From positions 1,986,001-2,050,000 of the forward strand of contig OZ249436.1 in NCBI GenBank assembly GCA_965235115.1: a DNA stretch of 64,000 nucleotides. Reading direction: 5' to 3'. The stretch comes from Laetmonice hystrix (Eukaryota). The translations under genes and the position numbers were made by a program. This document shows positions 31,763-64,000 of this stretch, piece after piece (position 1 is the stretch's first letter; each line of letters opens with the position of its first letter). The notes beneath the pieces were generated by a model that saw only the letters and a list, made by a program, of their open reading frames with translations, made no database searches and was not told the DNA's origin.

Positions 31763-31765
31763 CCG

Positions 31766-31879
31766 ACACCGCCATGCCGCGGCCGTCCCTCCCCAGGTTC
31801 CCACACCGCCATGCCGTGGCCGTCCATGCAAGGTTCCCACACCGCCATACCGCGGCCGTCCATGCAAGGTTCCCACACC
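31766..31879. repeat. Tandem repeat, 36-bp unit x3, abutting the 45-bp array
   Basis: Unit acaccgccatgccgtggccgtccatgcaaggttccc. Confidence 0.9.
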
Positions 31880-35150: not shown

Positions 35151-35321
35151 ACCATGGACAGACCTGTAGGGGTACTAAAGGTTAATCTAGAGTTGGCACA
35201 GACAGTGGTTGATTCATACGTTACTCAGTTATTGATCAATTGTGGAGGTGTTACGGGTTATTATGAACCAATGTATCACCTGACCACTGCTGTATGAGGC
35301 CGTCTGGTCTGTGTGACAGCC

Positions 35322-40400: not shown

Positions 40401-43400
40401 ACCTGTGTAAGGTTCAGTAGACCTGGGACTGGCAGTTTGTTCTGTACCTGTGTAAGGTTCAGTAGACCTGGGTCTGGCAGTTTGTTCTGTACCTGTGTAA
40501 GGTTCAGTAGACCTGGGACTGGCAGTTTGTTCTGTACCTGTGTAAGGTTCAGTAGACCTGGGACTGGCAGTTTGTTGTGTACCTGTGTAAGGTTCAGTAG
40601 ACCTGGGTCTGGCAGTTTGTTGTGTACCTGTGTAAGGTTCAGTAGACCTGAGACTGGCAGTTTGTTCTGTACCTGTGTAAGGTTCAGTAGACCTGGGACT
40701 GGCAGTTTGTTGTGTACCTGTGTAAGGTTCAGTAGACCTGGGTCTGGCAGTTTGTTCTGTACCTGTGTAAGGTTCAGTAGACCTGGGACTGGCAGTTTGT
40801 TCTGTACCTGTGTAAGGTTCAGTAGACCTGGGTCTGGCAGTTTGTTCTGTACCTGTGTAAGGTTCAGTAGACCTGGGACTGGCAGTTTGTTCTGTACCTG
40901 TGTAAGGTTCAGTAGACCTGCGTCTGGCAGTTTGTTCTGTACCTGTGTAAGGTTCAGTAGACCTGGGTCTGGCAGTTTGTTCTGTACCTGTGTAAGGTTC
41001 AGTAGACCTGGGTCTGGCAGTTTGTTCTGTACCTGTGTAAGGTTCAGTAGACCTGGGACTGGCAGTTTGTTCTGTACCTGTGTAAGGTTCAGTAGACCTG
41101 GGTCTGGCAGTTTGTTCTGTACCTGTGTAAGGTTCAGTAGACCTGGGACTGGCAGTTTGTTCTGTACCTGTGTAAGGTTCAGTAGACCTGGGACTGGCAG
41201 TTTGTTCTGTACCTGTGTAAGGTTTAGTAGACCTGCGTCTGGCAGTTTGTTCTGTACCTGTGTAAGGTTCAGTAGACCTGGGTCTGGCAGTTTGTCCTGT
41301 ACCTGTGTAAGGTCCAGTAGACCTGTGTAAGGTTCAGTAGACCTGGGACTGGCAGTTTGTTCTGTACCTGTGTAAGGTTCAGTAGACCTGGGACTGGCAG
41401 TTTGTTCTGTACCTGTGTAAGGTTCAGTAGACCTGGGGACTGGCAGTTTGTTGTGTACCTGTGTAAGGTTCAGTAGACCTGGGTCTGGCAGTTTGTTCTG
41501 TACCTGTGTAAGGTTCAGTAGACCTGAGACTGGCAGTTTGTTCTGTACCTGTGTAAGGTTCAGTAGACCTGGGTCTGGCAGTTTGTTCTGTACCTGTGTA
41601 AGGTTCAGTAGACCTGAGACTGGCAGTTTGTTGTGTACCTGTGTAAGGTTCAGTAGACCTGAGACTGGCAGTTTGTTGTGTACCTGTGTAAGGTTCAGTA
41701 GACCTGAGACTGGCAGTTTGTTCTGTACCTGTGTAAGGTCCAGTAGACCTGAGACTGGCAGTTTGTTCTGTACCTGTGTAAGGTCCAGTAGACCTGAGAC
41801 TGGCAGTTTGTTCTGTACCTGTGTAAGGTTCAGTAGACCTGGGTCTGGCAGTTTGTTCTGTACAGGTCTGTGTAAGGTTCAGTAGACCTGGGTCTGGCAG
41901 TTTGTTCTGTACCTGTGTAAGGTTCAGTAGACCTGGGGACTGGCAGTTTGTTCTGTACCTGTGTAAGGTTCAGTAGACCTGGGACTGGCAGTTGGTTCTG
42001 TACAGGTCTGTGTAAGGTTCAGTAGACCTGGGACTGGCAGTTTGTTGTGTACCTGTGTAATGTTCAGTAGACCTGGGACTGGCAGTTTGTTGTGTACCTG
42101 TGTAAGGTTCAGTAGACCTGGGTCTGGCAGTTTGTTCTGTACCTGTGTAAGGTTCAGTAGACCTGGGTCTGGCAGTTTGTTGTGTACTTGTGTAAGGTTC
42201 AGTAGACCTGGGTCTGGCAGTTTGTCCTGTACCGGTGTAAGGTTCAGTAGACCTGGGTCTGGCAGTTTGTTCTGTACCTGTGTAAGGTTCAGTAGACCTG
42301 GGTCTGGCAGTTTGTTGTGTACTTGTGTAAGGTTCAGTAGACCTGGGACTGGCAGTTTGTTCTGTACCGGTGTAAGGTTCAGTAGACCTGGGTCTGGCAG
42401 TTTGTTCTGTACCTGTGTAAGGTCCAGTAGACCTGGGACTGGCAGTTTGTTCTGTACCTGTGTAAGGTTCAGTAGACCTGAGACTGGCAGTTTGTTGTGT
42501 ACCTGTGTAAGGTTCAGTAGACCTGAGACTGGCAGTTTGTTGTGTACCTGTGTAAGGTCCAGTAGACCTGGGTCTGGCAGTTTGTTCTGTACCTGTGTAA
42601 GGTTCAGTAGACCTGGGTCTGGCAGTTTGTTGTGTACCTGTGTAAGGTTCAGTAGACCTGAGACTGGCAGTTTGTTGTGTACCTGTGTAAGGTTCAGTAG
42701 ACCTGAGACTGGCAGTTTGTTGTGTACCTGTGTAAGGTTCAGTAGACCTGAGACTGGCAGTTTGTTCTGTACCTGTGTAAGGTCCAGTAGACCTGAGACT
42801 GGCAGTTTGTTCTGTACCTGTGTAAGGTTCAGTAGACCTGAGACTGGCAGTTTGTTGTGTACCTGTGTAAGGTTCAGTAGACCTGGGTCTGGCAGTTTGT
42901 TCTGTACAGGTCTGTGTAAGGTTCAGTAGACCTGGGTCTGGCAGTTTGTTCTGTACAGGTCTGTGTAAGGTTCAGTAGACCTGGGACTGGCAGTTTGTTG
43001 TGTACCTGTGTAATGTTCAGTAGACCTGGGACTGGCAGTTTGTTGTGTACCTGTGTAAGGTTCAGTAGACCTGGGTCTGGCAGTTTGTTCTGTACCTGTG
43101 TAAGGTTCAGTAGACCTGGGTCTGGCAGTTTGTTCTGTACCTGTGTAAGGTTCAGTAGACCTGGGACTGGCAGTTTGTTCTGTACCTGTGTAAGGTTCAG
43201 TAGACCTGGGACTGGCAGTTTGTTCTCTACCTGTGTAAGGTTCAGTAGACCTGTGTAAGGTTCAGTAGACCTGGGACTGGCAGTTTGTTGTGTACCTGTG
43301 TAAGGTTCAGTAGACCTGGGTCTGGCAGTTTGTTCTGTACCTGTGTAAGGTTCAGTAGACCTGGGTCTGGCAGTTTGTTCTGTACCTGTGTAAGGTTCAG

Positions 43401-46400
43401 TAGACCTGGGACTGGCAGTTTGTTCTGTACCTGTGTAAGGTTCAGTAGACCTGGGACTGGCAGTTTGTTCTGTACCTGTGTAAGGTTCAGTAGACCTGGG
43501 TCTGGCAGTTTGTTCTGTACCTGTGTAAGGTTCAGTAGACCTGGGACTGGCAGTTTGTTCTGTACCTGTGTAAGGTTCAGTAGACCTGGGTCTGGCAGTT
43601 TGTTCTGTACCTGTGTAAGGTTCAGTAGACCTGGGACTGGCAGTTTGTTGTGTACTTGTGTAAGGTTCAGTAGACCTGGGTCTGGCAGTTTGTTCTGTAC
43701 CTGTGTAAGGTTCAGTAGACCTGGGTCTGGTAGTTTGTTCTGTACCTGTGTAAGGTTCAGTAGACCTGGGACTGGCAGTTTGTTCTGTACCTGTGTAAGG
43801 TTCAGTAGACCTGGGTCTGGCAGTTTGTTCTGTACCTGTGTAAGGTTCAGTAGACCTGGGTCTGGCAGTTTGTCCTGTACCTGTGTAAGGTTCAGTAGAC
43901 CTGGGTCTGGCAGTTTGTTCTGTACCTGTGTAAGGTTCAGTAGACCTGGGTCTGGCAGTTTGTTCTGTACCTGTGTAAGGTTCAGTAGACCTGGGTCTGG
44001 CAGTTTGTTCTGTACCTGTGTAAGGTTCAGTAGACCTGGGTCTGGCAGTTTGTTCTGTACAGGTCTGTGTAAGGTTCAGTAGACCTGGGACTGGCAGTTT
44101 GTTGTGTACCTGTGTAATGTTCAGTAGACCTGGGTCTGGCAGTTTGTTCTGTACCTGTGTAAGGTTCAGTAGACCTGGGTCTGGCAGTTTGTTCTGTACC
44201 TGTGTAAGGTTCAGTAGACCTGGGTCTGGCAGTTTGTTCTGTACCTGTGTAAGGTTCAGTAGACCTGGGACTGGCAGTTTGTTCTGTACCTGTGTAAGGT
44301 TCAGTAGACCTGGGTCTGGCAGTTTGTTCTGTACCTGTGTAAGGTTCAGTAGACCTGGGTCTGGCAGTTTGTTCTGTACCTGTGTAAGGTTCAGTAGACC
44401 TGGGTCTGGCAGTTTGTTCTGTACCTGTGTAAGGTTCAGTAGACCTGGGACTGGCAGTTTGTTCTGTACCTGTGTAAGGTTCAGTAGACTTGGGACTGGC
44501 AGTTTGTTCTGTACCTGTGTAAGGTTCAGTAGACCTGGGACTGGCAGTTTGTTCTGTACCTGTGTAAGGTTCAGTAGACCTGGGTCTGGCAGTTTGTTCT
44601 GTACAGGTCTGTGTAAGGTTCAGTAGACCTGGGTCTGGCAGTTTGTTCTGTACCTGTGTAAGGTCCAGTAGACCTGGGTCTGGCAGTTTGTTCTGTACCT
44701 GTGTAAGGTTCAGTAGACCTGGGACTGGCAGTTTGTTCTGTACCTGTGTAAGGTTCAGTAGACCTGGGTCTGGCAGTTTGTTCTGTACCTGTGTAAGGTT
44801 CAGTAGACCTGGGTCTGGCAGTTTGTTCTGTACCTGTGTAAGGTTCAGTAGACCTGGGTCTGGCAGTTTGTTCTGTACCTGTGTAAGGTTCAGTAGACCT
44901 GGGTCTGGCAGTTTGTTCTGTACCTGTGTAAGGTCCAGTAGACCTGAGACTGGCAGTTTGTTGTGTACCTGTGTAAGGTTCAGTAGACCTGGGTCTGGCA
45001 GTTTGTTCTGTACCTGTGTAAGGTTCAGTAGACCTGGGTCTGGCAGTTTGTTCTGTACCTGTGTAAGGTTCAGTAGACCTGGGTCTGGCAGTTTGTTCTG
45101 TACCTGTGTAAGGTTCAGTAGACCTGAGACTGGCAGTTTGTTCTGTACCTGTGTAAGGTTCAGTAGACCTGGGTCTGGCAGTTTGTTCTGTACCTGTGTA
45201 AGGTTCAGTAGACCTGGGACTGGCAGTTTGTTCTGTACCTGTGTAAGGTTCAGTAGACCTGGGTCTGGCAGTTTGTTCTGTACCTGTGTAAGGTTCAGTA
45301 GACCTGGGTCTGGCAGTTTGTTCTGTACAGGTCTGTGTAAGGTTCAGTAGACCTGGGACTGGCAGTTTGTTCTGTACCTGTGTAAGGTTCAGTAGACCTG
45401 GGACTGGCAGTTTGTTCTGTACCTGTGTAAGGTTCAGTAGACCTGGGACTGGCAGTTTGTTTTGTACCTGTGTAAGGTTCAGTAGACCTGGGACTGGCAG
45501 TTTGTTCTGTACCTGTGTAAGGTTCAGTAGACCTGGGACTGGCAGTTTGTTCTGTACCTGTGTAAGGTTCAGTAGACCTGGGACTGGCAGTTTGTTCTGT
45601 ACCTGTGTAAGGTTCAGTAGACCTGAGACTGGCAGTTTGTTCTGTACCTGTGTAAGGTTCAGTAGACCTGGGTCTGGCAGTTTGTTCTGTACAGGTCTGT
45701 GTAAGGTTCAGTAGACCTGGGTCTGGCAGTTTGTTCTGTACAGGTCTGTGTAAGGTTCAGTAGACCTGGGACTGGCAGTTTGTTCTGTACCTGTGTAAGG
45801 TTCAGTAGACCTGGGTCTGGCAGTTTGTTCTGTACCTGTGTAAGGTTCAGTAGACCTGGGACTGGCAGTTTGTTCTGTACCTGTGTAAGGTTCAGTAGAC
45901 CTGGGACTGGCAGTTTGTTTTGTACCTGTGTAAGGTTCAGTAGACCTGGGACTGGCAGTTTGTTCTGTACCTGTGTAAGGTTCAGTAGACCTGGGACTGG
46001 CAGTTTGTTCTGTACCTGTGTAAGGTTCAGTAGACCTGAGACTGGCAGTTTGTTCTGTACCTGTGTAAGGTCCAGTAGACCTGAGACTGGCAGTTTGTTG
46101 TGTACCTGTGTAAGGTTCAGTAGACCTGAGACTGGCAGTTTGTTCTGTGCCTGTGTAAGGTTCAGTAGACCTGGGACTGGCAGTTTGTTCTGTACCTGTG
46201 TAAGGTTCAGTAGACCTGAGACTGGCAGTTTGTTCTGTACCTGTGTAAGGTTCAGTAGACCTGGGACTGGCAGTTTGTTTTGTACCTGTGTAAGGTTCAG
46301 TAGACCTGGGTCTGGCAGTTTGTTCTGTACAGGTCTGTGTAAGGTTCAGTAGACCTGGGACTGGCAGTTTGTTCTGTACCTGTGTAAGGTTCAGTAGACC

Positions 46401-47479
46401 TGAGACTGGCAGTTTGTTCTGTACCTGTGTAAGGTTCAGTAGACCTGGGACTGGCAGTTTGTTCTGTACCTGTGTAAGGTTCAGTAGACCTGGGACTGGC
46501 AGTTTGTTGTGTACCTGTGTAAGGTTCAGTAGACCTGAGACTGGCAGTTTGTTCTGTACCTGTGTAAGGTCCAGTAGACCTGAGACTGGCAGTTTGTTGT
46601 GTACCTGTGTAAGGTTCAGTAGACCTGAGACTGGCAGTTTGTTCTGTGCCTGTGTAAGGTTCAGTAGACCTGGGACTGGCAGTTTGTTCTGTACCTGTGT
46701 AAGGTTCAGTAGACCTGAGACTGGCAGTTTGTTCTGTACCTGTGTAAGGTTCAGTAGACCTGGGACTGACAGTTTGTTCTGTACCTGTGTAAGGTTCAGT
46801 AGACCTGGGTCTGGCAGTTTGTTCTGTACCTGTGTAAGGTTCAGTAGACCTGTGTAAGGTTCAGTAGACCTGGGTCTGGCAGTTTGTCCTGTACCTGTGT
46901 AAGGTTCAGTAGACCTGGGTCTGGCAGTTTGTTCTGTACCTGTGTAAGGTTCAGTAGACCTGGGTCTGGCAGTTTGTTCTGTACCTGTGTAAGGTTCAGT
47001 AGACCTGGGACTGGCAGTTTGTTCTGTACCTGTGTAAGGTTCAGTAGACCTGGGTCTGGCAGTTTGTTCTGTACCTGTGTAAGGTTCAGTAGACCTGTGT
47101 AAGGTTCAGTAGACCTGGGTCTGGCAGTTTGTCCTGTACCTGTGTAAGGTTCAGTAGACCTGGGTCTGGCAGTTTGTTCTGTACCTGTGTAAGGTTCAGT
47201 AGACCTGTGTAAGGTTCAGTAGACCTGAGACTGGCAGTTTGTTGTGTACCTGTGTAAGGTTCAGTAGACCTGAGACTGGCAGTTTGTTGTGTACCTGTGT
47301 AAGGTTCAGTAGACCTGGGTCTGGCAGTTTGTCCTGTACCTGTGTAAGGTTCAGTAGACCTGGGTCTGGCAGTTTGTTCTGTACCTGTGTAAGGTTCAGT
47401 AGACCTGGGACTGGCAGTTTGTTCTGTACAGGTCTGTGTAAGGTTCAGTAGACCTGGGTCTGGCAGTTTGTTCTGTACC
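37444..47479. repeat. Largest array: 45-bp unit, ~10 kb (~220 copies), with 49-bp and 20-bp variant units
   Basis: Unit gtttgttctgtacctgtgtaaggttcagtagacctggg(a/t)ctggca. Variants: +aggt insertion, and the short unit acctgtgtaaggttcagtag. Confidence 0.98.
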
Positions 47480-47541
47480 GTTGTTCTGAGACTGGCAGAA
47501 TCATTGATCCAGGACATGAGCGTTCAGACATACCGTTATGG

Positions 47542-49434
47542 CCCGGTCTGATGATGGGTGGAGTACGGACCGGTTTATGTGAGACCCGGCCTGATGATGG
47601 GTGGAGTACGGACCGGTTTATGTGAGACCCGGCCTGATGATGGGTGGAGTACGGACCGGTTTATGTGAGACCCGGTCTGATGATGGGTGGAGTACGGACC
47701 GGTTTATGTGAGACCCGGTCTGATGATGGGTGGAGTACGGACCGGTTTATGTGAGACCCGGTCTGATGATGGGTGGAGTACGGACCGGTTTATGTGAGAC
47801 CCGGCCTGATGATGGGTGGAGTACGGACCGGTTTATGTGAGACCCGGTCTGATGATGGGTGGAGTACGGACCGGTTTATGTGAGACCCGGCCTGATGATG
47901 GGTGGAGTACGGACCGGTTTATGTGAGACCCGGCCTGATGATGGGTGGAGTACGGACCGGTTTATGTGAGACCCGGTCTGATGATGGGTGGAGTACGGAC
48001 CGGTTTATGTGAGACCCGGTCTGATGATGGGTGGAGTACGGACCGGTTTATGTGAGACCCGGTCTGATGATGGGGGGAGTACGGACCGGTTTATGTGAGA
48101 CCCGGTCTGATGATGGGTGGAGTACGGACCGGTTTATGTGAGACCCGGTCTGATGATGGGTGGAGTACGGACCGGTTTATGTGAGACCCGGTCTGATGAT
48201 GGGTGGAGTACGGACCGGTTTATGTGAGACCCGGTCTGATGATGGGTGGAGTACGGACCGGTTTATGTGAGACCCGGCCTGATGATGGGTGGAGTACGGA
48301 CCGGTTTATGTGAGACCCGGTCTGATGATGGGTGGAGTACGGACCGGTTTATGTGAGACCCGGCCTGATGATGGGTGGAGTACGGACCGGTTTATGTGAG
48401 ACCCGGCCTGATGATGGGTGGAGTACGGACCGGTTTATGTGAGACCCGGTCTGATGATGGGTGGAGTACGGACCGGTTTATGTGAGACCCGGCCTGATGA
48501 TGGGTGGAGTACGGACAGGTTTATGTGAGACCCGGCCTGATGATGGGTGGAGTACGGACCGGTTTATGTGAGACCCGGTCTGATGATGGGTGGAGTACGG
48601 ACCGGTTTATGTGAGACCCGGTCTGATGATGGGTGGAGTACGGACCGGTTTATGTGAGACCCGGTCTGATGATGGGTGGAGTACGGACCGGTTTATGTGA
48701 GACCCGGCCTGATGATGGGTGGAGTACGGACCGGTTTATGTGAGACCCGGTCTGATGATGGGTGGAGTACGGACCGGTTTATGTGAGACCCGGTCTGATG
48801 ATGGGTGGAGTACGGACCGGTTTATGTGAGACCCGGTCTGATGATGGGTGGAGTACGGACCGGTTTATGTGAGACCCGGCCTGATGATGGGTGGAGTACG
48901 GACCGGTTTATGTGAGACCCGGCCTGATGATGGGTGGAGTACGGACCGGTTTATGTGAGACCCGGTCTGATGATGGGTGGAGTACGGACCGGTTTATGTG
49001 AGACCCGGTCTGATGATGGGTGGAGTACGGACCGGTTTATGTGAGACCCGGCCTGATGATGGGTGGAGTACGGACCGGTTTATGTGAGACCCGGTCTGAT
49101 GATGGGTGGAGTACGGACCGGTTTATGTGAGACCCGGCCTGATGATGGGTGGAGTACGGACCGGTTTATGTGAGACCCGGCCTGATGATGGGTGGAGTAC
49201 GGACCGGTTTATGTGAGACCCGGTCTGATGATGGGTGGAGTACGGACCGGTTTATGTGAGACCCGGTCTGATGATGGGTGGAGTACGGACCGGTTTATGT
49301 GAGACCCGGTCTGATGATGGGTGGAGTACGGACCGGTTTATGTGAGACCCGGCCTGATGATGGGTGGAGTACGGACCGGTTTATGTGAGACCCGGTCTGA
49401 TGATGGGTGGAGTACGGACTGGTTTATGTGAGAC
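47542..49434. repeat. Highly homogeneous minisatellite, 43-bp unit, ~44 copies
   Basis: Unit cccgg(t/c)ctgatgatgggtggagtacggaccggtttatgtgaga; period 43 (47581 to 47624). Confidence 0.97.
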
Positions 49435-49987
49435 AATAACACATGGTATCGGATTATGTCAAATATCTGTCAGTAATAATCCCAATCTCATACACCCTCG
49501 ACCTTGATCATGAAATGGCCATACCTGGGAATGAACTAAGATGAGAAGAACCTCAGGCAATGCTATATAAGAAGGTTGGATCGCAAAGCCTTTATTGCAT
49601 GCCATGCCTTCACCGTTTGCCTTTGATCCAAGCCGGGGTGGCAGCACAAAGGGCAGCACAGAGGTCGACTGACAAGATCGGGACCAGTGTTAAGTAAAGA
49701 TCTCTAAAGAGATCAGATTTTATCATCAGTAAGATGACAAACTGCATTCAGTCACCTCTGAGCTGTAGTCTGGTGATTTCCATGTTATCATTCTGTTATA
49801 TCAAATCATATTTTTTACCTGTACCCTTTGGAAACCGGAGATAATGGTTCCATGTACCGTAACATTTTACCACTGACCTCAATCTCAACATTTTACGTTT
49901 CTGTAGGTGTTTTAAGATTAGTGTTATATCATTAATCCTTGAGTCGTGTTCAGTTCAGTGCTAAGGTTGGTCTGTGTTTACATATCC

Positions 49988-50083
49988 CAGGGCGCGTTTC
50001 ACAATGATCGTTAACTTGTGCGTTAAATCCCCCATTGAAAATACATTGGTTTTAACGATACGACAAGTTAACGACAGGTTGTG
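49988..50083. mobile_element. Truncated palindromic MITE-like fragment (possibly Harbinger-type)
   Basis: Begins gggcgcgtttcacaa; internal inverted arms tcgttaacttgt...acaagttaacga. The right end is replaced by a poly-C run. The family guess is an inference. Confidence 0.45.
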
Positions 50084-50108
50084 CCCCCCCCCCCCGGGCT
50101 GGTGCAGA

Positions 50109-50254
50109 GGCCGCAGTGATTCAGTGGTCCAGGTCTGTAGCTACAGATCACAGAGCCTCGAGGTTGCAATCCCGTAATAAAGTCTTTGGCAGAGTTCAGA
50201 TGTAATCTATTTGCTCCAAGGTCGCTATTTTCTCCGGGTACTACAGTACCACCC
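50109..50254 (+). mobile_element. Decayed tRNA-derived SINE with partial V-domain core
   Basis: ggccgcagtgattcagtggt (A-box-like), ggttgcaatccc (B-box-like) and ttttctccgggtact (V-domain core) occur in the expected order. Confidence 0.65.
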
Positions 50255-50600
50255 AGGCGCTAAAACTTAGAATTACTACATCGTGTCGGTGTCACATAGA
50301 ATTTGATTGAACAAGAAAATCAGCTGATGACAAATGTCCAATTGACCAAACGACTATATCATTTTGTTCCCTGTCTAACATCTCAATTATTCCGTTTCAT
50401 ATCCCTTTTTCTCCCACATGTCAACTTTTGACCTTGGCTTTTTTTAAAAAGAAGAAGTGTCCTTTGATGTTCTTATCACGAATTAGTTTGCTCATTTCAG
50501 GTAGCGGCTGTAATCATATCGTAATGAGAAAAAGAAAAAAACTTGGCGAAAAAAAAACTGTTTGAGAACCACATCACAGTTAGGAAAGGGCTTATTTGAA

Positions 50601-51222
50601 AAGGCCAATGAGTTCTCCGTGAATTGTAGGCCTATCTCCTTGTATCTGTGGTCATCTTAGTGTAAGGCCAGTGAGTTATCCGTGAATTGTAGGCCTATCT
50701 CCTTGAATCTGTGGTCATCTTAGTGTAAGGCCAGTGAGTTCTCCGTGAATTGTAGGCCTATCTCCTTGAATCTGTGGTCATCTTAGTGTAAGGCCAGTGA
50801 GTTCTCCGTGAATTGTAGACCTATCTCCGTGTATCTGTGGTCATCTTAGTGTAAGGCCAGTGAGTTCTCCGTGAATTGTAGACCCATCTCCTTGTATCTG
50901 TGGGCATCTTAGTGTAAGGTCAGTGAGTTCTCCGTGAATTGTAGACCCATCTCCTTGTATCTGTGGGCATCTTAGTGTAAGGCCAGTGAGTTCTCCGTGA
51001 ATTGTAGACCCATCTCCTTGTATCTGTGGTCATCTTAGTGTAAGGTCAGTGAGTTCTCCGTGAATTGTAGACCTGTCTTCTTGTATCTGTGGTCATCTTA
51101 GTGTAAGGTCAGTGAGTTCTCCGTGAATTGTAGACCTGTCTCCTTGTATCTGTGGTCATCTTAGTGTAAGGTCAGTGAGTTCTCCGTGAATTGTAGACCC
51201 ATCTCCTTGTATCTGTGGTCAG
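50601..51222. repeat. Minisatellite, 63-bp unit, ~10 copies
   Basis: Unit aaggccagtgagttctccgtgaattgtaggcctatctccttgtatctgtggtcatcttagtgt (50601 to 50664). Confidence 0.96.
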
Positions 51223-51680
51223 TGTATTAAACTGAAGATCAACCGGATACTGTATGTGAGCTAGGTCAGGACTAGAATGGAGTTCACTTTTGGTCATTTC
51301 TTTGTTAAAAGTGGGGGATTGGATTACGTGCATAAACTGGCCGAGAAGGCCAGCTCGGCGAGTTGGGAATAGTTTGAGGTCGTCGGGCAGGCTAGCAGGC
51401 AGGCGCACAGGCAGGCAGGCGGGTAGGCAGGACCCTCAGGCTGCTGCAGATCCCCCCGGTTTAAAATGTATTTTGGGTTTGAAGAGTGGAATTGCCCAAG
51501 GCTGCAGTCACTCGCCTGGCCTGTGAGCGGGCGTGATTGTGTCATATAATGACACAGATAAAATGTGTAGATCGAGGCACGGAAATGTCAGTGTGGAGCT
51601 ATTTCTGTCGTGGCCGTCGAGTGTTAAATATTAGCGATGAGAAAGTGTGAGTGCCAGTACGTGGTGGCTGGGCGTGATGT

Positions 51681-54600
51681 AACATCTCGCCGCCAATCGG
51701 TCTCAGACAATGCTGTGATCGCAGCCTGCAGGCCCGTATAGTGGCAACATCTCGCAGGCCCGTATAGTGGCAACATCTCGCCACCAATCGGTCTCAGACA
51801 GTGCTGTGATCGCAGCCTGCAGGCCTGTATAGTGGCAACATCTCGCCGCCAATCGGTCTCAGACAATGCAGGCCTGTATAGTGGCAACATCTCGCCGCCA
51901 ATCGGTCTCAGACAATGCAGGCCTGTATAGTGGCAACATCTCGCCGCCAATCGGTCTCAGACAATGCAGGCCCGTAAAGTGGCAACATCTCGCTGCCAAT
52001 CGGTCTCAGACAATGTAGGCCCGTATAGTGGCAACATCTCGCTGCCAATCGGTCTCAGACAATGTAGGCCCGTATAGTGGCAACATCTCGCTGCCAATCG
52101 GTCTCAGACAATGTAGGCCCGTATAGTGGCAACATCTCGCTGCCAATCGGTCTCAGACAATGCAGGCCCGTATAGTGGCAACATCTCGCCGCCAACTCGG
52201 TCTCAGACAATGTAGGCCCGTATAGTGGCAACATCTCGCTGCCAATCGGTCTCAGACAATGTAGGCCCGTATAGTGGCAACATCTCGCTGCCAATCGGTC
52301 TCAGACAATGTAGGCCCGTATAGTGGCAACATCTCGCTGCCAATCGGTCTCAGACAATGCAGGCCCGTATAGTGGCAACATCTCGCCGCCAACTCGGTCT
52401 CAGACAATGTAGGCCCGTATAGTGGCAACATCTCGCTGCCAATCGGTCTCAGACAATGCAGGCCCGTATAGTGGCAACACCTCGCTGCCAATCGGTCTCA
52501 GACAATGTAGGCCCGTATAGTGGCAACATCTCGCCGCCAATCGGTCTCAGACAATGTAGGCCCGTATAGTGGCAACATCTCGCTGCCAATCGGTCTCAGA
52601 CAATGCAGGCCCGTATAGTGGCAACATCTCGCCGCCAACTCGGTCTCAGACAATGCTGTGAGCGCAGCCTGCAGGCCCGTATAATGGCAACATCTCGCCG
52701 CCAACTCGGTCTCAGACAATGCAGGCCCGTACAGTGGCAACATCTCGCCGCCAACCGGTCTCAGACAATGCAGGCCCGTACAGTGGCAACATCTCGCCGC
52801 CAACTCGGTCTCAGACAATGCTGTGATCGCAGCCTGCAGGTCCGTGTAGTGGCAACATCTCCCAGGCCCGTGTAGTGGCAACATCTCCCAGGCCCGTGTA
52901 GTGGCAACATCTCCCAGGCCTGTATAGTGGCAACATCTCTCAGGCCCGTGTAGTGGCAACATCTCCCAGGCCCGTGTAGTGGCAACATCTCCCAGGCCCG
53001 TATAGTGGCAACATCTCGCAGGCCCGTATAGTGGCAACATCTCGCAGGCCCGTATTTAATAGTGGCAACATCTCCCAGGCCCGTATAGTGGCAACATCTT
53101 GCAGGCCCATATAGTGGCAACATCTCGCAGGCCCGTATTTAATAGTGGCAACATCTCCCAGGCCCGTATAGTGGCAACATCTCCCAGGCCCGTGTAATGG
53201 CAACATCTCGCAGGCCCGTATTTAATAGTGGCAACATCTCGCAGGCCCGTATAGTGGCAACATCTCCCAGGCCCGTATAGTGGCAACATCTCGCAGGCCC
53301 GTGTAGTGGCAACATCTCCCAGGCCTGTATAGTGGCAACATCTCGCAGGCCCGTGTAGTGGCAACATCTCCCAGGCCCGTATTTAATAGTGGCAACATCT
53401 CGCAGGCCCGTGTAGTGGCAACATCTCGCAGGCCCGTATTTAATAGTGGCAACATCTCGCAGGCCCGTATAGTGGCAACATCTCGCAGGCCCGTATAGTG
53501 GCAACATCTCGCAGGCCCGTGTAGTGGCAACATCTCCCAGGCCCGTATTTAATAGTGGCAACATCTCCCAGTTCTGTGTAATGGCAACATCTCCCAGGCC
53601 CGTATAGTGGCAACATCTCCCAGGCCCGTATAGTGGCAACATCTCCCAGGCCCGTGTAGTGGCAACATCTCTCAGGCCCGTGTAGTGGCAACATCTCCCA
53701 GGCCCGTGTAGTGGCAACATCTCCCAGGCCCGTGTAGTGGCAACGTCTCGCAGGCCCGTGTAGTGGCAACATCTCGCAGGCCCGTGTAGTGGCAACATCT
53801 CGCAGGCCCGTATAGTGGCAACATCTCCCAGGCCCGTATAGTGGCAACATCTCCCAGGCCCGTGTAGTGGCAACATCTCCCAGGCCCGTGTAGTGGCAAC
53901 ATCTCGCAGGCCCGTGTAGTGGCAACATCTCGCAGGCCCGTGTAGTGGCAACATCTCCCCAGGCCCGTATAGTGGCAACATCTCCCAGGCCCGTATAGTG
54001 GCAACATCTTCCAGGCCTGTACAGTGGCAACATCTCCCAGGCCCGTGTAGTGGCAACATCTCCCAGGCCCGTGTAGTGGCAACATCTCCCAGGCCCGTGT
54101 AGTGGCAACATCTCTCAGGCCCGTGTAGTGGCAACATCTCCCAGGCCCGTGTAGTGGCAACATCTCCCAGGCCCGTGTAGTGGCAACATCTCGCAGGCCC
54201 GTGTAGTGGCAACATCTCGCAGGCCCGTGTAGTGGCAACATCTCGCAGGCCCGTATAGTGGCAACATCTCCCAGGCCCGTATAGTGGCAACATCTCCCAG
54301 GCCCGTGTAGTGGCAACATCTCCCAGGCCCGTGTAGTGGCAACATCTCGCAGGCCCGTGTAGTGGCAACATCTCGCAGGCCCGTGTAGTGGCAACATCTC
54401 CCCAGGCCCGTATAGTGGCAACATCTCCCAGGCCCGTATAGTGGCAACATCTTCCAGGCCTGTACAGTGGCAACATCTCCCAGGCCCGTGTAGTGGCAAC
54501 ATCTCCCAGGCCCGTGTAGTGGCAACATCTCCCAGGCCCGTGTAGTGGCAACATCTCCCAGGCCGGTGTAGTGGCAACATCTCCCAGGCCCGTGTAGTGG

Positions 54601-55291
54601 CAACATCTCCCAGGCCCGTGTAGTGGCAACATCTCGCAGGCCCGTGTAGTGGCAACATCTCGCAGGCCCGTGTAGTGGCAACATCTCGCAGGCCCGTATA
54701 GTGGCAACATCTCCCAGGCCCGTATAGTGGCAACATCTCCCAGGCCCGTGTAGTGGCAACATCTCCCAGGCCCGTGTAGTGGCAACATCTCGCAGGCCCG
54801 TGTAGTGGCAACATCTCGCAGGCCCGTGTAGTGGCAACATCTCCCAGGCCCGTATAGTGGCAACATCTCCCAGGCCCGTATAGTGGCAACATCTTCCAGG
54901 CCTGTACAGTGGCAACATCTCCCAGGCCCGTGTAGTGGCAACATCTCCCAGGCCCGTGTAGTGGCAACATCTCCCAGGCCCGTGTAGTGGCAACATCTCC
55001 CAGGCCGGTGTAGTGGCAACATCTCCCAGGCCCGTGTAGTGGCAACATCTCCCAGGCCCGTGTAGTGGCAACATCTCCCAGGCCCGTGTAGTGGCAACAT
55101 CTCCCAGGCCCGTATAGTGGCAACATCTCCCAGGCCCGTGTAGTGGCAACATCTCCCAGGCCCGTGTAGTGGCAACATCTCCCAGGCCCGTGTAGTGGCA
55201 ACATCTCCCAGGCCCGTGTAGTGGCAACATCTCCCAGGCCCGTGTAGTGGCAACATCTCGCCGCCAACGCGGTCTTAGACAAGGCTGTGAT
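51681..55291. repeat. Compound minisatellite of nested 65-, 49- and 26-bp units (plus 31-bp variant)
   Basis: The 49-bp unit caggcccgtatagtggcaacatctcgccgccaatcggtctcagacaatg dominates to ~52840, then the 26-bp unit caggcccgtgtagtggcaacatctcc. Confidence 0.96.
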
Positions 55292-55564
55292 CAATAGCCA
55301 AGGATTGGGAGCCCCTGATGCCCCCTCCCTCCCGGCCACTCTAGCCCCACTCCGGCCACAGAGACGGTCGGCCGGTCTAAGCCGGAGATTGGCTCAACTA
55401 ACGTCCGTCTAAAGTCCACCCTCACACACCCCTACCATCACCACAACCAACAACCACAACCCCTGCTTCAAACAAGGCTTGCCATGAGAGGTGGGAACCT
55501 GGGCCATGTTGATTTGACTCCGCTAGACGCGGGAAGACGAGTTGGTTTGTGTGAAGGCAATGCG

Positions 55565-57605
55565 AGGGTTTTACCACAGACCACGTGCTATCACTGAGTC
55601 TGAACCTCCCTACCACTGGTCTACAACCTCAATGTGTACAGAGATGTGGGCATTATACGGATGGTATTTGATATCATTTGGTGGGGAATGCCCGACAACC
55701 AAGGCCTGGTCCCCCCTACCACTGGTCACAACCTCAATGTGTACAGAGATGTGGACATTATACGGATGGTATTTGATATCATTTGGTGGGGAATGCCCGA
55801 CAACCAAGACCTGGTCCCCCCTACCACGGGTCTACAACCTCAATGTGTACAGAGATGTGGGCATTATACGGGTGGTATTTTATATCATTTGGTGGGGAGT
55901 GCCCGACAACCAAGACCTGGTCCCCCCTACCACTGGTCTACAACCTCAATGTGTACAGAGATGTGGGCATTATACGGGTGGTATTTTATATCATTTGGTG
56001 AGGAATGCCCGACAACCAAGACCTGGTACCCCCTACCACTGGTCACAACCTCAATGTGGACAGAGATGTGGGCATTATACGGGTGGTATTTGATATCATT
56101 TGGTGGGGAGTGCCCGACAACCAAGACCTGTTCCTCCCTACCACTGGTCACAACCTCAATGTGTACAGAGATGTGGACATTATACGGGTGGTATTTTATA
56201 TCATTTGGTGGGGAGTGCCCGACAACCAAGACCTGTTCCTCCCTACCACTGGTCTACAACCTCAATGTGTACAGAGATGTGGGCATTATACGAATGGTAT
56301 TTTATATCATTTGGTGGGGAATGCCCGACAACCAAGGCCATGTCAGTAATATCCACAGGGTTTTACCACAGACCACGTGCTATCACTGAGTCTGAACCTC
56401 CCTACCACTGGTCACAACCTCAGTGTGTACAGAGATGTGGGCATTATACGGATGGTATTTGATATCATTTGGTGGGGAATGCCCGACAACCAAGGCCTGG
56501 TCCCCCCTACCACTGGTCACAACCTCAATGTGTACAGAGATGTGGGCATTATACGGGTGGTATTTGATATCATTTGGTGGGGAGTGCCCGACAACCAAGA
56601 CCTGGTACCCCCTACCACTGGTCACAACCTCAATGTGTACAGAGATGTGGACATTATACGGGTGGTATTTGATATCATTTGGTGGGGAATGCCCGACAAC
56701 CAAGACCTGGTCCCCCCTACCACGGGTCTATAACCTCAATGTGTACAGAGATGTGGGCATTATACGGGTGGTATTTGATATCATTTGGTGGGGAATGCCC
56801 GACAACCAAGACCTGGTCCCCCCTACCACTGGTCACAACCTCAATGTGTACAGAGATGTGGACATTATACGGGTGGTATTTGATATCATTTGGTGGGGAA
56901 TGCCCGACAACCAAGACCTGGTCCCCCCTACCACGGGTCTATAACCTCAATGTGTACAGAGATGTGGGCATTATACGGGTGGTATTTGATATCATTTGGT
57001 GGGGAATGCCCGACAACCAAGACCTGGTCCCCCCTACCACGGGTCTATAACCTCAATGTGTACAGAGATGTGGGCATTATACGGGTGGTATTTGATATCA
57101 TTTGGTGGGGAATGCCCGACAACCAAGACCTGGTCCCCCCTACCACGGGTCTATAACCTCAATGTGTACAGAGATGTGGGCATTATACGGGTGGTATTTG
57201 ATATCATTTGGTGGGGAGTGCCCGACAACCAAGACTTGTTCCTCCCTACCACTGGTCTACAACCTCAATGTGTACAGAGATGTGGGCATTATACGGGTGG
57301 TATTTGATATCATTTGGTGGGGAGTGCCCGACAACCAAGACCTGTTCCTCCCTACCACTGGTCTACAACCTCAATGTGTACAGAGATGTGGGCATTATAC
57401 GGGTGGTATTTGATATCATTTGGTGGGGAATGCCCGACAACCAAGGCCATGTCAGTAATATCCACAGGGTTTTAACACAGACAGCACGTGTTATCACTGA
57501 GTCTGAACCTGTTCATCCCGAACACGGGTCTACAACCTCGATGTATACAGAGATGTGGGATGGTATTTGATATCATTTGGTGGGGAATACCCGACATCCA
57601 AGACA
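55565..57605. repeat. Minisatellite, 105/106-bp unit, ~18 copies, with a longer form interspersed
   Basis: Unit ggtctacaacctcaatgtgtacagagatgtgggcattatacgggtggtatttgatatcatttggtggggaatgcccgacaaccaagacctggtcccccctaccact. An extra segment occurs at ~55565, ~56336 and ~57445. Confidence 0.95.
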
Positions 57606-57778
57606 AATGGGATGAGGAAAAGAATATTTCTGAGAAAAGACGGACAACAAACGTAGTGTTCCTTGAAAGATAGCAGTGAAAGAAGTTCCCGTCGGTTTGA
57701 GCAGTTGTTTTATGTGTCAGATTCGATTTGAGCTTGACTTATTTTCCCTTTCGGATACACATCGATGTGGTGGTACTA

Positions 57779-58275
57779 TGACACGGGAGACAGCGGTGAC
57801 ACGGGAGACAGCGGTGTTACGGTGACACGGGAGACAGCGGTGTCACTGTGACACGGGAGACAGCGGTGTCACTGTGACACGGGAGACAGCGGTGTCACGG
57901 TGACACGGGAGACAGCGGTGTCACTGTGACACGGAAGACAGCGGCGTCACCTTGACACGGGAGACAGCGGCGTCACCTTGACACGGGAGACAGCGGCGTC
58001 ACCTTGACACGGGAGACAGCGGTGTCACCTTGACACGGGAGACAGCGGTGACACGTGAGACAGCGGTGTCACCTTGACACGTGAAACAGCGGTGACACGG
58101 GAGACAGCGGTGTCACGGGAGACAGCGGTGTCACTGTGACACGGGAGACAGCGGTGTCACGGTGACACGGGACACAGCGGTGTCACCTTGACACGGGAGA
58201 CAGCGGTGTCACCTTGACACGGGAGACAGCGGTGTCACCGTGACACGGGAGGCAGCGGTGTCACCGTGACACGTG
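57779..58275. repeat. Minisatellite, 26-bp unit (17-bp short form), internally palindromic
   Basis: Unit tgacacgggagacagcggtgtcactg; arms tgacac/gtgtca. Confidence 0.93.
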
Positions 58276-58328
58276 ACCGTGTCAGCGGTTCAGGTAAAAC
58301 TAGCGGTCTCTCGGTGCACTTGGAACAT

Positions 58329-58875
58329 GTATGATAGGGGTATGAGAATCGCCCCCTCCCATCTCTTGGCGGCACGTGCCGTGTGACGATTCGCTCAGCG
58401 TGGCCTGTAGTATGATAGGGGTACGAGAATCGCCCCCTCCCATCTCTTGGCGGCACGTGCCGTGTGATGATTCGCTCAGCGTGGCCTGTAGTATGATAGG
58501 GGTACGAGAATCGCCCCCTCCCATCTCTTGGCGGCACGTGCCGTGTGATGATTCGCTCAGCGTGGCCTGTAGTATGATAGGGGTACGAGAATCGCCCCCT
58601 CCCATCTCTTGGCGGCACGCGGCGTGTGACGATTCGCTCAGCGTGGCCTGTAGTATGATAGGGGTACGAGAATCGCCCCCTCCCATCACTTGGCGGCACG
58701 CGACGTGTGATGATTCGCTCAGCGTGGCTTCAGGTTGTAGTATGATAGGGGTACGAGAATCGCCCCCTCCCATCTCTTGGCGGCACGTGCCGTGTGACGA
58801 TTCGCTCAGCGTGGCCTGTAGTATGATAGGGGTACGAGAATCGCCCCCTCCCATCTCTTGGCGGCACGTGCCGTG
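58329..58875. repeat. Minisatellite, 81-bp unit, ~6.7 copies
   Basis: Unit gtatgataggggtacgagaatcgccccctcccatctcttggcggcacgtgccgtgtgacgattcgctcagcgtggcctgta. Confidence 0.95.
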
Positions 58876-59173
58876 CCCCGGGGACCACATGGGAAGGCGA
58901 CATCTGGTGTAGTATAAATACAAACATCCCAGCATCATGTGACACCGGGTGACTGTGTTAGCTGTGAATGAAGCAACCAGTTCTAGAGGGCTCTACACGT
59001 GTACATTTACAACCAGGGACTGCAGAGGTATCTGGCTGTCATATTATAAGTGACCCTAATTTGAACCTTACCCAGACCATGGGCCATTTTCTACAAAATA
59101 AGGTTGGCGGAAAGGTCACTAAATTACGCAGTTTTATTTAGAATCTCAGATCAGTTCGCTTTCACCACATTAA

Positions 59174-59615
59174 AGGCAGGGTAAACACCCACGGCAAATA
59201 AGGTTTCATAGACCAAATGAAACACCAGCATTTACCTCAGGGCAATAAATTCCACAATTACGTTGTCAGAATGAAGTAATTAACGTGTAACTGTCCGATG
59301 TATGACGCCGCTGGTTCTGACCTTGACCTTCTTGTGTGTTCATCACAGCCGAATGCTGCACACCGCGGTGTATTGCGTAACATTACATGTTACTCTGCTC
59401 ACCCGACCTTGTCTACACGATGTTTGGAGTCCCAACGTTTGTAAACGTCCGAGGTGTTAAACACACAAGTAGAACAAGCGGCGTCACACATCGAGCAGTT
59501 ACACGTTAATTACTTCATTCAGAAAATGTAATTGTGTCATTTATTGTCCTGAGGTAAATGCTGGTGTTTCATTTGGTCTACGAAACCTTATTTGCCGTGG
59601 GTGTTTACCCTGCCT
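59174..59615. mobile_element. Non-autonomous fold-back DNA transposon (MITE), TTAA TSD, AGG...CCT termini (Kolobok-like)
   Basis: TTAA at 59170-59173 and 59616-59619. Imperfect inverted arms of ~145-165 bp (aggcagggtaaacacccacggcaaataaggtttc... / ...gaaaccttatttgccgtgggtgtttaccctgcct). TTAA with RR..YY ends fits Kolobok better than piggyBac (CCY ends). Confidence 0.88.
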
Positions 59616-59937
59616 TTAACTTGAAGAGTGGACCTGTAGATACTCGGGGATATCACCGAAAACACGCGATTCATTCTTTAAAAAAACAAGTGATAACATT
59701 TGTCATTTCCTGAAAGTGTCCAGAATCAGTAACGTCTGCTTATGTAGAGCCATTGAACGTCGGACATAAACAAGTAAACGTTACGGACACCCGTCATTTA
59801 TTGTGTGTTCATGCAGTAGTTGTCGGCGTGTTCGTTAATCTGATCGGGTGAGCAAGGTGAAACTTGGTTGATTAAATAATCCCTATTGATCATGACCCAG
59901 GGACCCGTTAATGACGGTTGGTTACTGAGGGGTGCTA

Positions 59938-61208
59938 TCAGGTCGGTCATCACAAACAGTTTGTAAACCAAGCGGGGATCTTACCTGGTCATACAGGACA
60001 TAGGGTCGGAATCTGTCAGCGGGGATCTGGTACTTACCTGGTCATACAGGACATAGGGTCGGAATCTGTCAGCGGGGATCTGGTACTTACCTGGTCATAC
60101 AGGACATAGGGTCGGAATCTGTCAGCGGGGATCTGGTACTTACCTGGTCATACAGGACATAGGGTCGGAATCTGTCAGCGGGGATCTGGTACTTACCTGG
60201 TCATACAGTACATAGGGTCGGAATCTGTCAGCGGGGATCTGGTACTTACCTGGTCATACAGGACACAGGGTCGGAATCTATCAGGTCAGTCATCACAAAC
60301 AGTTTGTAAACCAAGCGGGGATCTTACCTGGTCATACAGGACATAGGGTCGGAATCTGTCAGCGGGGATCTGGTACTTACCTGGTCATACAGGACATAGG
60401 GTCAGAATCTGTCAGCGGGGATCTGGTACTTACCTGGTCATACAGGACATAGGGTCGGAATCTGTCAGCGGGGATCTGGTACTTACCTGGTCATACAGGA
60501 CATAGGGTCGGAATCTGTCAGCGGGGATCTGGTACTTACCTGGTCATACAGGACATAGGGTCAGAATCTGTCAGCGGGGATCTGGTACTTACCTGGTCAT
60601 ACAGGACACAGGGTCGGAATCTCTCAGGTCAGTCATCACAAACCGTTTGTAAACCAAGCGGGGATCTTACCTGGTCATACAGGACACAGGGTCGGAATCT
60701 GTCAGCGGGGATCTGGTACTTAGCTGGTCATACAGGACATAGGGTCGGAATCTGTCAGGTCGGGCCACACAAACAGTTTGTAAACCAAGCGGGGATCTTA
60801 CCTGGTCATACAGGACATAGGGTCAGAATCTGTCAGCGGGGATCTGGTACTTACCTGGTCATACAGGACATCGGGTCGGAATCTGTCAGCGGGGATCTGG
60901 TACTTACCTGGTCATACAGGACATAGGGTCGGAATCTGTCAGCGGGGATCTGGTACTTACCTGGTCATACAGGACATAGGGTCGGAATCTGTCAGCGGGG
61001 ATCTGGTACTTACCTGGTCATACAGGACATAGGGTCGGAATCTGTCAGGTCGGGCCACACAAACAGTTTGTAAACCAGGCGGGGATCTGGTACTTACCTG
61101 GTCATACAGGACATAGGGTCAGAATCTGTCAGCGGGGATCTGGTACTTACCTGGTCATACAGGACACAGGGTCAGAATCTGTCAGGCCCGGCCACACAAA
61201 CAGTTTAT
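59938..61208. repeat. Minisatellite, 53-bp unit with interspersed longer form, ~21 copies
   Basis: Unit cttacctggtcatacaggacatagggtcggaatctgtcagcggggatctggta (60001 to 60054). The long form adds gtcagtcatcacaaacagtttgtaaaccaag. Confidence 0.95.
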
Positions 61209-61983
61209 AACTCTTCACTACAACAGTAATTGTTATAATTCAAGAACTACTTGATTTCGTCATTCGTACCAATTGCAAGGACATATGTAGCTACTCCGGC
61301 GATTAAAACAATCGGTGGACTAACAAATTATTTCGGTTTACCAACGAGTCAATTTACAATCTTTGAAATCCTAGAGACTGATACTAACCCAACAATATTC
61401 TTAAAGCTAACCTCTAGAACTACATGGTGTCGTTAATCTTGGTGTGAATGTGGCAATCATTGATTTATGACCAGATGTGTCCGCCTGCTGAATGGCCAAG
61501 TGTTGTGCCGTGAGGAGTATTGGTCTCTTTCAGAACATACAAAGGAATTTATCAACACATTGCGAAGTGGTAATTCTAGCACACAACACGACAGTCGAGC
61601 CGTCTTTCGTGTGGTTTTCTGTTAAAGAGATGCCTGATGTCAATGAGGAGGCGTCCGGTGACTGTTTGACGGATTGTCTACTGCTAGTGTATAGAAACGG
61701 GGAAACAATGAGTATATACGCCGGCAATCTGTCCTTATGGTATGGTTGGAGATACCCCAGATACATAATCGGCAACTTCAAATCTATCACTGTCCCCAAC
61801 CTTAAACCTAATCCTAACTCTACATAGATTTTCATGGATATTTTCACGGCAGTGGAAATATCCCCGTGATAAAAGTATTACCACCATGCCATGGAAATAG
61901 CCATGAAAATCATTGTAGTAAATTCAAGTGTCTGTGTCCTCGTGGGCCACCGTAGCCCTGCTTCGCTTAAAGCTTGCTGTTTA

Positions 61984-62202
61984 GGGGCCGACCAGTTAAC
62001 TTTGATGGGAGGGGGGGGGGAGATTTTATGAATAAATTTCCTGGCTCCAATTTCTTCGGGAAAAAATAATTTGGCTGCCCCTGTCATTGAATAGAGATGC
62101 ATTGAAATGTCTAAAAAAAATTCCGGATCTGAAATTGTGTGAAAAAAATATTCTGTCCAAACTAAATCTCCCCCCCCCCATCAAAGTTAAATGGTCCGCC
62201 CC
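61984..62202. mobile_element. MITE, ~45-bp TIRs, TTA TSD (PIF/Harbinger-like)
   Basis: tta|ggggccgaccagttaactttgatgggagggggggggagattt ... aaatctccccccccccatcaaagttaaatggtccgcccc|tta. A 3-bp TWA TSD is typical of PIF/Harbinger. Confidence 0.8.
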
Positions 62203-62322
62203 TTAGAACCTTTCTGAAACCGGGGCCCATCAGTTTCGTAGGAATATGCCATTGGGGAGTGACTAAGTTAGAACTGGCATGAGTGTGTTTGGAGTAGGAG
62301 GCGGAGTGTGGGGGTGGGTGGG

Positions 62323-62484
62323 TGGCAGGTACAGGTTAGACCACCTGTCAGATATCGTCACGTTGACAGGAGTTGACAGGCAGTCAGGACGACACGCCAA
62401 TGGTATGGCAGGTACGGGTTAAACCACCTGTCAGATATCGTCACGTTGACAGGAGTTGACAGGCAGTCAGAACGACACGCCAAT
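62323..62484. repeat. Tandem duplication, 83 bp x2
   Basis: tggcaggtac..ggtt..accacctgtcagatatcgtcacgttgacaggagttgacaggcagtcag..cgacacgccaat at 62323 and 62406. Confidence 0.9.
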
Positions 62485-63016
62485 AAGTGACAGGAGGAAG
62501 AGGATATGGAGATGTAATGATAGGAGAGTGGCTGTCCCTATTAAATCTCCCATACGACTCGGCTTGGAGATTGTGGGGGCGACTGTCGCCCACTAATGGC
62601 CCACTGTCCAGTCCGTAACAGATTGCGGAAATTTGATTTAACATAACTTCAGCCAAGGCAATTCCATTAGCCAAACTATTAAGGTGATATTCCGGACAGT
62701 TTTTCTCATACATTAACCATGTAGTAAAATTGATTAAGCCGCCAATAATTCTATATAAAAAGATATCGATTGTTTTGAGGTACGATTTACTAGGTTCCTA
62801 GTAAGGACTTTATCCGAATATACCTCAAAATGCAAAAAGATTGTGCAAAAGTGGACTTTTGAAAGAAGCTAAGTACTACACCTCCAGCTTGAGCTTTGTA
62901 GGTATTTTACAAATGTTGCAAAGGAGATTTCATGTTGTATTTATGGTGATATTTGATGCGGGTCTAGAGCAATTTAATGTAAGAATTGAAAAGTGACCTA
63001 CATAATGTAGTATTGG

Positions 63017-63119
63017 CTAATAAAATGTTCTTTTCTTCTTATCTTTGCAGGTAAGTACTCACCTGTGGTCTCCGTATGTATGCCGTTGTTTGAGCGTGTC
63101 ACGCATCTGATAATTTAAG
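63017..63119 (+). promoter_or_regulatory. Candidate recursive splice site (3'ss/5'ss juxtaposed at 63050/63051) with cryptic 69-nt exon
   Basis: CTAAT branch motif at 63017-63021; AG-free pyrimidine tract tgttcttttcttcttatcttt; GCAG|GTAAGT; downstream donor AAG|GTAACA at 63119/63120. Sequence evidence only, no transcript data. Confidence 0.55.
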
Positions 63120-63366
63120 GTAACATGTACATATCTCCGAATTTTGGTGGTCAGAAATAAAACTAAACTACCCCTATACTCCAGACCCTAACGCCTATAT
63201 TCCAGGGGCTGGTTTCTCAGTCTTTGGGCAAGTCTCTTGCCTTACTTGCCTGACACGAATGGACTGTCCAACCGGCCTGGAATAAAAGGTAATGCAAGGA
63301 CGGGAATAGTGTGACAAAGAATCCGGCCCCTGGTGTTCAAATCTCTCCAGAATACGCATCCCTTAA

Positions 63367-63893
63367 AGGGGCATATTAATTATGAGGAAACATTGAAAAT
63401 CGGTATTTCATAGAACTTTTGCTGTTTTCATAAAGAGATCCTTCATTAAAATTAGTATTGGTAAACAAAGACAGACTTATCAGTTTCATTTTGCGTGAGA
63501 AATCGAAGTTAATTAAGCTCCCTTGCCCACTTCTCTGCCGATTTCGTAAACTATTTTTTGGGTGGCATTCTGATGCCGGGCGATCGAGTGCCACTGCTGA
63601 ATTGTTCACAACTAAACGAAGCACGTGACTAAGCACATGCAGCGAGTGCACACGCAGGATCTGACACAGTATGCAATTACACGGGTTGATGGGAGGTTGT
63701 CTGCCAAATTATGGTGGGAGATCGGGAGAAATCTATAGGTTTGGTCGTATAGAACCTACTTGTGCTGCATACGCAGCGAAAACACGTCGGAGGACAAAAT
63801 GCTGTGGTAGGATTATTTACTTGGATCCTTAGTACACGGTCATGTTGGATAATTGCCGGAAATCCTCAAAAACGTGTTTCATAGCATGCCCCT
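63367..63893. mobile_element. Probable non-autonomous DNA transposon, TTAA TSD, short TIR (Kolobok-like)
   Basis: ttaa|aggggcat ... atgcccct|ttaa (TSDs 63363-63366 and 63894-63897). Only 8 bp of perfect TIR, with patchy match beyond. Confidence 0.6.
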
Positions 63894-64000
63894 TTAACTG
63901 GGCCTGCTTCTAGCTGTACACTACCCCAAACTACGTGGGAGTGGTACTAAGGGTGAATAACAAACCTTTCGTGAGTTTAGAATCGTTCAAGGAGTAGACC

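Follow-up and report, generated by a model that had tools for sequence, protein, structure and literature searches.

A probable recursive splice site with a cryptic exon in a 150.6-kb intron of unc-13, and a putative class of similar sites in a lophotrochozoan genome

A tandem acceptor-donor junction at position 63050/63051 of the window, the 64,000-nt stretch of DNA analysed here (C1:1986001-2050000), is probably an intronic ratchet point of the fly type with a cryptic RS-exon. The evidence from sequence supports the recursive-splicing interpretation given in the first-pass annotation of this DNA, and suggests that this animal, too, may remove long introns in steps.

Results

Splice signals at the junction

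The elements of the site are listed below in window coordinates.

63017..63021, + strand: branch-point motif CTAAT (sequence match), branch A at 63020
63028..63046, + strand: T-rich polypyrimidine tract, 19 nt with one purine (18/20 pyrimidines)
63047..63050, + strand: 3′ splice acceptor GCAG, with the best acceptor score in 264 kb
63051..63058, + strand: candidate ratchet-point donor GTAAGTAC, identical to the first eight bases of intron 3
63051..63119, + strand: candidate cryptic RS-exon, 69 nt, delimited from the sequence
63120..63125, + strand: second (RS-exon) donor GTAACA after AAG, junction 63119/63120

The first-pass annotation had described CTAAT with its branch A at 63020, an AG-free stretch and GCAG followed immediately by GTAAGT, and its coordinates are exact. 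The pyrimidine tract is likewise present, at a length of 19 nt and not the ~21 nt claimed. The AG-free zone covers 38 nt, between the AG at 63009-10 and the next one at 63049-50. As also annotated, an AAG/GTAACA donor lies 69 nt downstream and the interval has stops in all three frames (at +2, +58 and +66), with more at +41 and +61; one frame is open for 21 codons. A Pfam scan of four short peptides returned no family.

The site divides a long intron of unc-13

The window lies on contig C1 of a 627-Mb, 35-contig animal genome. Searches with homologues place unc-13, a 470-kb gene of the + strand, at C1:1952265-2422377. Its best named matches are in molluscs and annelids, and those of a second gene (the turtle/IGSF9-like one below) in annelids; by these matches the animal is a lophotrochozoan, probably an annelid. 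A match to the UNC-13 C2A domain (PDB 2cjs, E 3e-10) comes from a candidate exon 94 kb downstream. By homologue mapping, the window is wholly within intron 3 and has no unc-13 exon inside it.

C1:1983689-1983788, + strand: unc-13 exon 3, which joins exon 4 directly in UNC-13 homologues
C1:1983789-2134393, + strand: unc-13 intron 3 (150,605 bp, phase 2, within the C2A-coding region), its interior including window 1..64000
C1:2134394 (start), + strand: unc-13 exon 4, consecutive to exon 3 in homologues, with an in-frame join

As the annotation had surmised, the window is part of a very long + strand intron; it is not intergenic. The site cuts this intron into 65,262 nt (5′) and 85,343 nt (3′). 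Were the 69-nt exon included, TAA 63052-63054 (+2) would be in frame with exon 3, so the interval cannot be a coding exon of unc-13. An ordinary unc-13 coding exon starting at 63051, an outcome that the annotation had allowed for, is thus ruled out, and homologues pass directly from exon 3 to exon 4.

Two other readings would place the end or the start of a transcript at the site. The hexamer AATAAA (63019-63024) overlaps the branch motif and has GU-rich sequence downstream, as for an alternative terminal exon with intronic polyadenylation and an early transcript end. However, AATAAA is common in AT-rich DNA and occurs at -50..-1 in just 2 of 19 members of the class described below, and a U1 site beside a polyadenylation signal, such as the perfect one adjoining it here, should suppress cleavage. 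We regard this reading as highly improbable. It is just as hard to credit that GTAAGT acts only as the donor of an alternative first exon, transcribed from an internal promoter and coding from ATG 63025 for 8 codons plus 2 bases. This ATG is preceded by an A-rich context and its frame, phase 2, fits exon 4, but such a fit is expected by chance in one case out of three, the protein made would probably be without the first third of the C2A fold, and the branch motif, the AG-free zone and the second donor would be left unexplained.

Rarity and copy number of the site

Splice scores were computed with rough matrices based on general consensus frequencies. Among the 13,827 unmasked AGs of a 264-kb region (the window and 100 kb on each side, both strands), the AG at 63049-50 ranks first on this scale, and the site ranks first of 3,223 AG/GT sites by summed acceptor and donor score. 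A third-order Markov simulation, which underestimates pyrimidine runs, yielded one comparable site in 30 Mb, or ~0.005 per 150.6 kb. A loose pattern fitting the site matches 1,029 times genome-wide versus 941 for the reversed control, which corresponds to ~0.12 per 150.6 kb on one strand. Thus the loose motif by itself is not significant. The site is its only match on either strand of the 470-kb gene. A single A in the pyrimidine tract keeps the site from matching the strict and branch-anchored patterns used below. The second donor is weak by matrix score (3.1), lower than all 12 second donors of the strict set (4.3-6.5), and donors scoring at least 3.0 lie 30-90 nt downstream at 7.3% of background positions.

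Up to ~63200, where a dispersed repeat begins, the element occurs once in the genome. Single contigs span the site in all three DNA runs (one sample, one study), which rules out an artefact of assembly. Over 61250-64000 the three runs show one variant in the candidate exon (63084), three just downstream and none in the splice signals; they represent one individual and are too few for a statement on constraint. A tandemly duplicated splice junction (a minisatellite 'mirage') was rejected, as there is no tandem repeat over 62485-64000 and the site is single copy. A second candidate, at window 37249, was set aside as having neither a branch motif nor a downstream donor. Beyond the element, window 63366-63917 is an interspersed repeat with a summed contig depth ~10^4 times the single-copy level.

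A putative class of acceptor/GTAAGT sites in the genome

The strict pattern (12 pyrimidines, N, YAG, GTAAGT) has 22 matches genome-wide versus 11 for its reversed control, and the branch-anchored pattern 28 versus 18. The excess over the reversed controls is modest. GTAAGT is found in 22 of 560 strict acceptor/GTNNNT sites, about twice the composition estimate (p 4e-4).

Twenty of the 22 strict sites were examined first. A branch motif (YTRAY with its A 17-35 nt upstream) was present in 12 of them, a donor at +30..+90 (a window set after these 20 sites had been viewed, and unchanged for the held-out and control sets) also in 12, both in 11 (Fisher p 8e-4) and neither in 7. The corresponding background rates in unmasked DNA are 17.8% for the branch motif, 7.3% for the donor and 1.4% for both. 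Matched controls were 20 strict acceptors with a non-donor GT, picked on C1, in the order listed, from 100 of the 560, with poly-C runs, donor-like sites and one microsatellite left out. These controls carried the branch motif in 2/20 (p 1e-3), the downstream donor in 0/20 (p 2e-5) and both in 0/20.

The held-out set comprised 15 of the 28 branch-anchored matches, 11 being already in the first set and 2, further copies of one repeat, being left out. Picked on the branch motif alone, these sites have a donor at +30..+90 in 6 of 15 cases (p 4e-4 versus 7.3%). Five extra sites, including the last two strict ones, added one donor, which belongs to one of those two. The hidden exons measure 36-79 nt, with a median of 50 (n=19). 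An excess of lengths divisible by three, seen in 8/12 of the first set, was not supported by the held-out sites (3/7). Together these counts argue for a ratchet-like class of at least about 20 sites in the genome. As the annotation had proposed to check, the motif does recur genome-wide, in a class characterised by branch motifs and a short hidden exon. A host gene was identified for two of the ~20 class members, and both lie on the sense strand of introns longer than 70 kb.

These data bear on whether the elements of the unc-13 site came together by chance in AT-rich intron DNA and are unused, a coincidence selected out of a large search space. Such a coincidence gains from the ~0.12 loose motifs expected in an intron of this size, from a second donor that sits at the threshold, and from the strict set itself, in which 7 of 20 sites are without branch motif and downstream donor and at least one (L033) is an ordinary exon end. 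However, branch motif and downstream donor occur together at 1.4% of background positions and in none of the 20 matched controls, and the site is in sense orientation and has the top acceptor of 264 kb. We therefore think chance an improbable explanation.

Ratchet-like sites with short hidden exons were noted at L031, L035-L037, L039, L040, L042, L044, L046, L047, L049, L051-L053, L056, L057, L063 and L067, and at C2:4491860, C7:7889920 and C12:14111218. Two co-oriented pairs of sites are 118 kb (C12) and 199 kb (C29) apart; the rough p of 0.004 is post hoc and is not relied on. An Ig exon lies 212 kb from site L037. Two tandem arrays dominated the output of a search for the two-donor pattern, leaving 12 single sites versus 4 control matches. 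Arrays at C1:19017248-19018039, C1:19554304-19555424 and C12:26313500-26316375 have units with a pyrimidine run and AG/GTAAG, which inflate motif counts.

Donor competition at the unc-13 site

In the proposed mechanism, the 69-nt cryptic exon would be defined between its strong acceptor and the weak donor at its far end as the polymerase moves through 63051-63125. Exon 3 would then be joined to 63051, and the first 65,262 nt would leave as a lariat branched at 63020. The join of exon 3 to 63051 rebuilds a donor identical to the native intron-3 donor over -3..+8. Splicing of this donor to exon 4 would remove the other 85,343 nt together with the cryptic exon and leave no trace in the mRNA. If the downstream donor won instead, the in-frame stop would truncate UNC-13 at about residue 51, and RNA with a premature stop is a target of nonsense-mediated decay.

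The calculated U1 pairing energy is -6.8 kcal/mol for both the native and the rebuilt donor and -6.5 kcal/mol for the exon donor at 63120. The second donor, weak by matrix score, is thus about equal to the rebuilt donor by pairing energy. Since the rebuilt donor is barely stronger, constant skipping of the 69-nt exon is not assured. The near-tied donors and the in-frame stop at +2 would also suit a regulated poison cassette exon, in which the 69 nt are often included and lower the long UNC-13 isoform by nonsense-mediated decay, re-splicing being secondary. In the excerpted text of PMC8605326, a fly ratchet donor weakened below its exon donor led to full inclusion. Some members of the class may likewise be included, as site L048 (below) has a stronger exon donor and a stop-free frame. 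However, nothing about a poison exon calls for a perfect donor right at its start, the exon donor is here the weaker of the two by intronic consensus, and the excess of 3n lengths was not repeated in the held-out sites. We consider this reading unlikely, and prefer the ratchet point with a cryptic exon.

RNA folding predicts a further element at the junction.

63047..63066, + strand: predicted 6-bp hairpin over the AG/GT junction, a near-palindrome

Its pairing probability in the unspliced RNA is 0.96-1.0 at -3..+2, and most of its 5′ arm would be lost after the first splicing step. Compared with shuffled sequences, the hairpin gave p 0.31 at this site and p 0.05 at the 19 other sites, which is a trend only; the hairpin was rejected as a class feature and may be incidental. 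Within the same near-palindrome, a donor-like minus-strand site at 63063 faces the + strand site. A minus-strand coding exon ending at 63063 was considered and rejected: the nearby acceptor scores -0.9, and a stronger one, 214 nt off, lies in a dispersed repeat and is not listed as stop-free.

A second placed site in a turtle/IGSF9-like gene

Site L048 (C19:13370472/73) is located, in sense orientation, within a 73,644-bp intron (C19:13343512-13417155) of a turtle/IGSF9-like gene, whose best named matches are in annelids. This intron separates the first two Ig exons, and a search for Ig domains found an exon 47 kb downstream of the site. The hidden exon of 39 nt is in frame and contains no stop; its inclusion would insert 13 residues between Ig1 and Ig2. 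Its donor is stronger than the rebuilt donor (-10.3 versus -6.8), and the 39-nt exon may be an expressed RS-exon.

The 81-kb and 97-kb gaps of the turtle-like gene have no match in the strict or branch-anchored lists, and the 221-kb exon-free stretch of unc-13 (C1:2158934-2380325) has none to the loose pattern. Long introns in this genome thus need no such sites. The 221-kb stretch, in which no exon was mapped, may hold variable-region exons or an internal promoter. DNA beyond C1:2150000 was covered by pattern and protein searches only.

Relation to known recursive splicing systems

Flies and vertebrates provide the proven cases of recursive splicing. For Drosophila, ratchet points and their cryptic RS-exons were reportedly described by Hatton in 1998, Burnette in 2005, Duff in 2015 and Joseph in 2018, and cryptic RS-exons of long vertebrate neuronal genes are said to have been described by Sibley in 2015. 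To our knowledge, UNC13 genes are not among the vertebrate hosts.

According to excerpts of the fly literature, ratchet points are tandem acceptor-donor sites in long introns with a ~50-nt cryptic exon and donor competition (PMC8605326), and at most of them a second donor follows less than 100 nt downstream (PMC6224609). The unc-13 site resembles those described in these excerpts (Ubx-RP, kuz-RP1/2, Bx-RP) in having a strong acceptor and the consensus donor GTAAGT on the sense strand, deep in a long intron. It further shares with them a short cryptic exon, a second donor within 100 nt, a stop in the host frame on inclusion, and a host of the neural or developmental kind. The median of 50 nt for the hidden exons here matches the '~50 nt' given for flies in the legend to Fig. 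1 of PMC8605326. Unlike the Drosophila sites, however, the unc-13 site belongs to another superphylum, its intron is swollen by minisatellites, its donors are nearly tied and it is a prediction from sequence; the genome has tens of strict sites versus more than 500 in the fly. The vertebrate RS-exons (CADM2 and about nine others, in excerpts of PMC6224609 and PMC8605326) are similar in their definition by a downstream donor within a very long intron, and in a rebuilt donor that depends on the last bases of the preceding exon and competes with the exon donor. The expressed Drosophila RS-exons Ubx m1/m2 (51 nt) are the closer parallel to L048, with its 39-nt, in-frame, stop-free exon and strong exon donor, whereas the unc-13 exon could not be translated in the host frame.

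The closest precedent in kind of evidence is that of Shepard et al. 2009 (PMC2773006), who used sequence to find ratchet-like sites in long introns of invertebrates. They counted sites on the sense versus the antisense strand, whereas the signal here is branch motif plus downstream donor. Table 2 of that source gives sense-strand enrichments of 8.2 in sea urchin, 4.0 in bee, 8.0 in beetle and 21.7 in fly, with enrichment in mosquito too; for vertebrates the source gives a ratio of 1.5 or less, and none of the 13 species surveyed is a lophotrochozoan. The annotation's remark that such sites are little described in other invertebrates has to be qualified for sea urchin, bee, beetle and mosquito, in which sequence enrichment had already been reported. 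In the literature searched, by title and the start of the abstract, recursive splicing combined with annelid, mollusc or unc13 gave nothing on topic. The mechanism is known; the lophotrochozoan lineage is without a report in that literature.

A cryptic-exon signature of the same size in lophotrochozoans would fill the third big branch of the bilaterians, and would argue that exon-defined recursive splicing is ancestral. We put forward, as a speculation with rather poor odds, that recursive splicing by way of ~50-nt cryptic exons goes back to the bilaterian ancestor and is still in use in lophotrochozoans, that this worm and insects share an unc-13 ratchet point at the same intronic position, and that the site has a role as a switch. 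If so, the near-tied donors would decide whether the intron is removed stepwise or the RNA of the C2A-containing UNC-13 isoform decays, and would link the processing of a long intron to synaptic release. Failure at the unc-13 site would remove the long UNC-13 isoform. The class provides ~20 exact coordinates, including one in this synaptic gene.

Neighbouring sequence features

By masking, tandem repeat makes up 71% of the window. A 53-bp tandem repeat at 59980-61185 on the minus strand has CAG/GTAAG in most units, giving ~20 donor-like sites antisense to unc-13. Short tandem repeats also reach the acceptors of unc-13 exons 4 and 5 (L019:4340-4394 and L020:3200-3430), and the first bases of exon 4 recur once ~50 nt upstream of its acceptor. 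Just past the window, L011:844-4390 contains a direct duplication of ~1.9 kb with near-identical ORFs 1,936-1,942 bp apart. Finally, about 40 kb upstream of unc-13, an exon with a CGHC motif lies on the minus strand (L028:5350-5640, C1:1911350) and presumably belongs to a protein disulfide isomerase-like gene.
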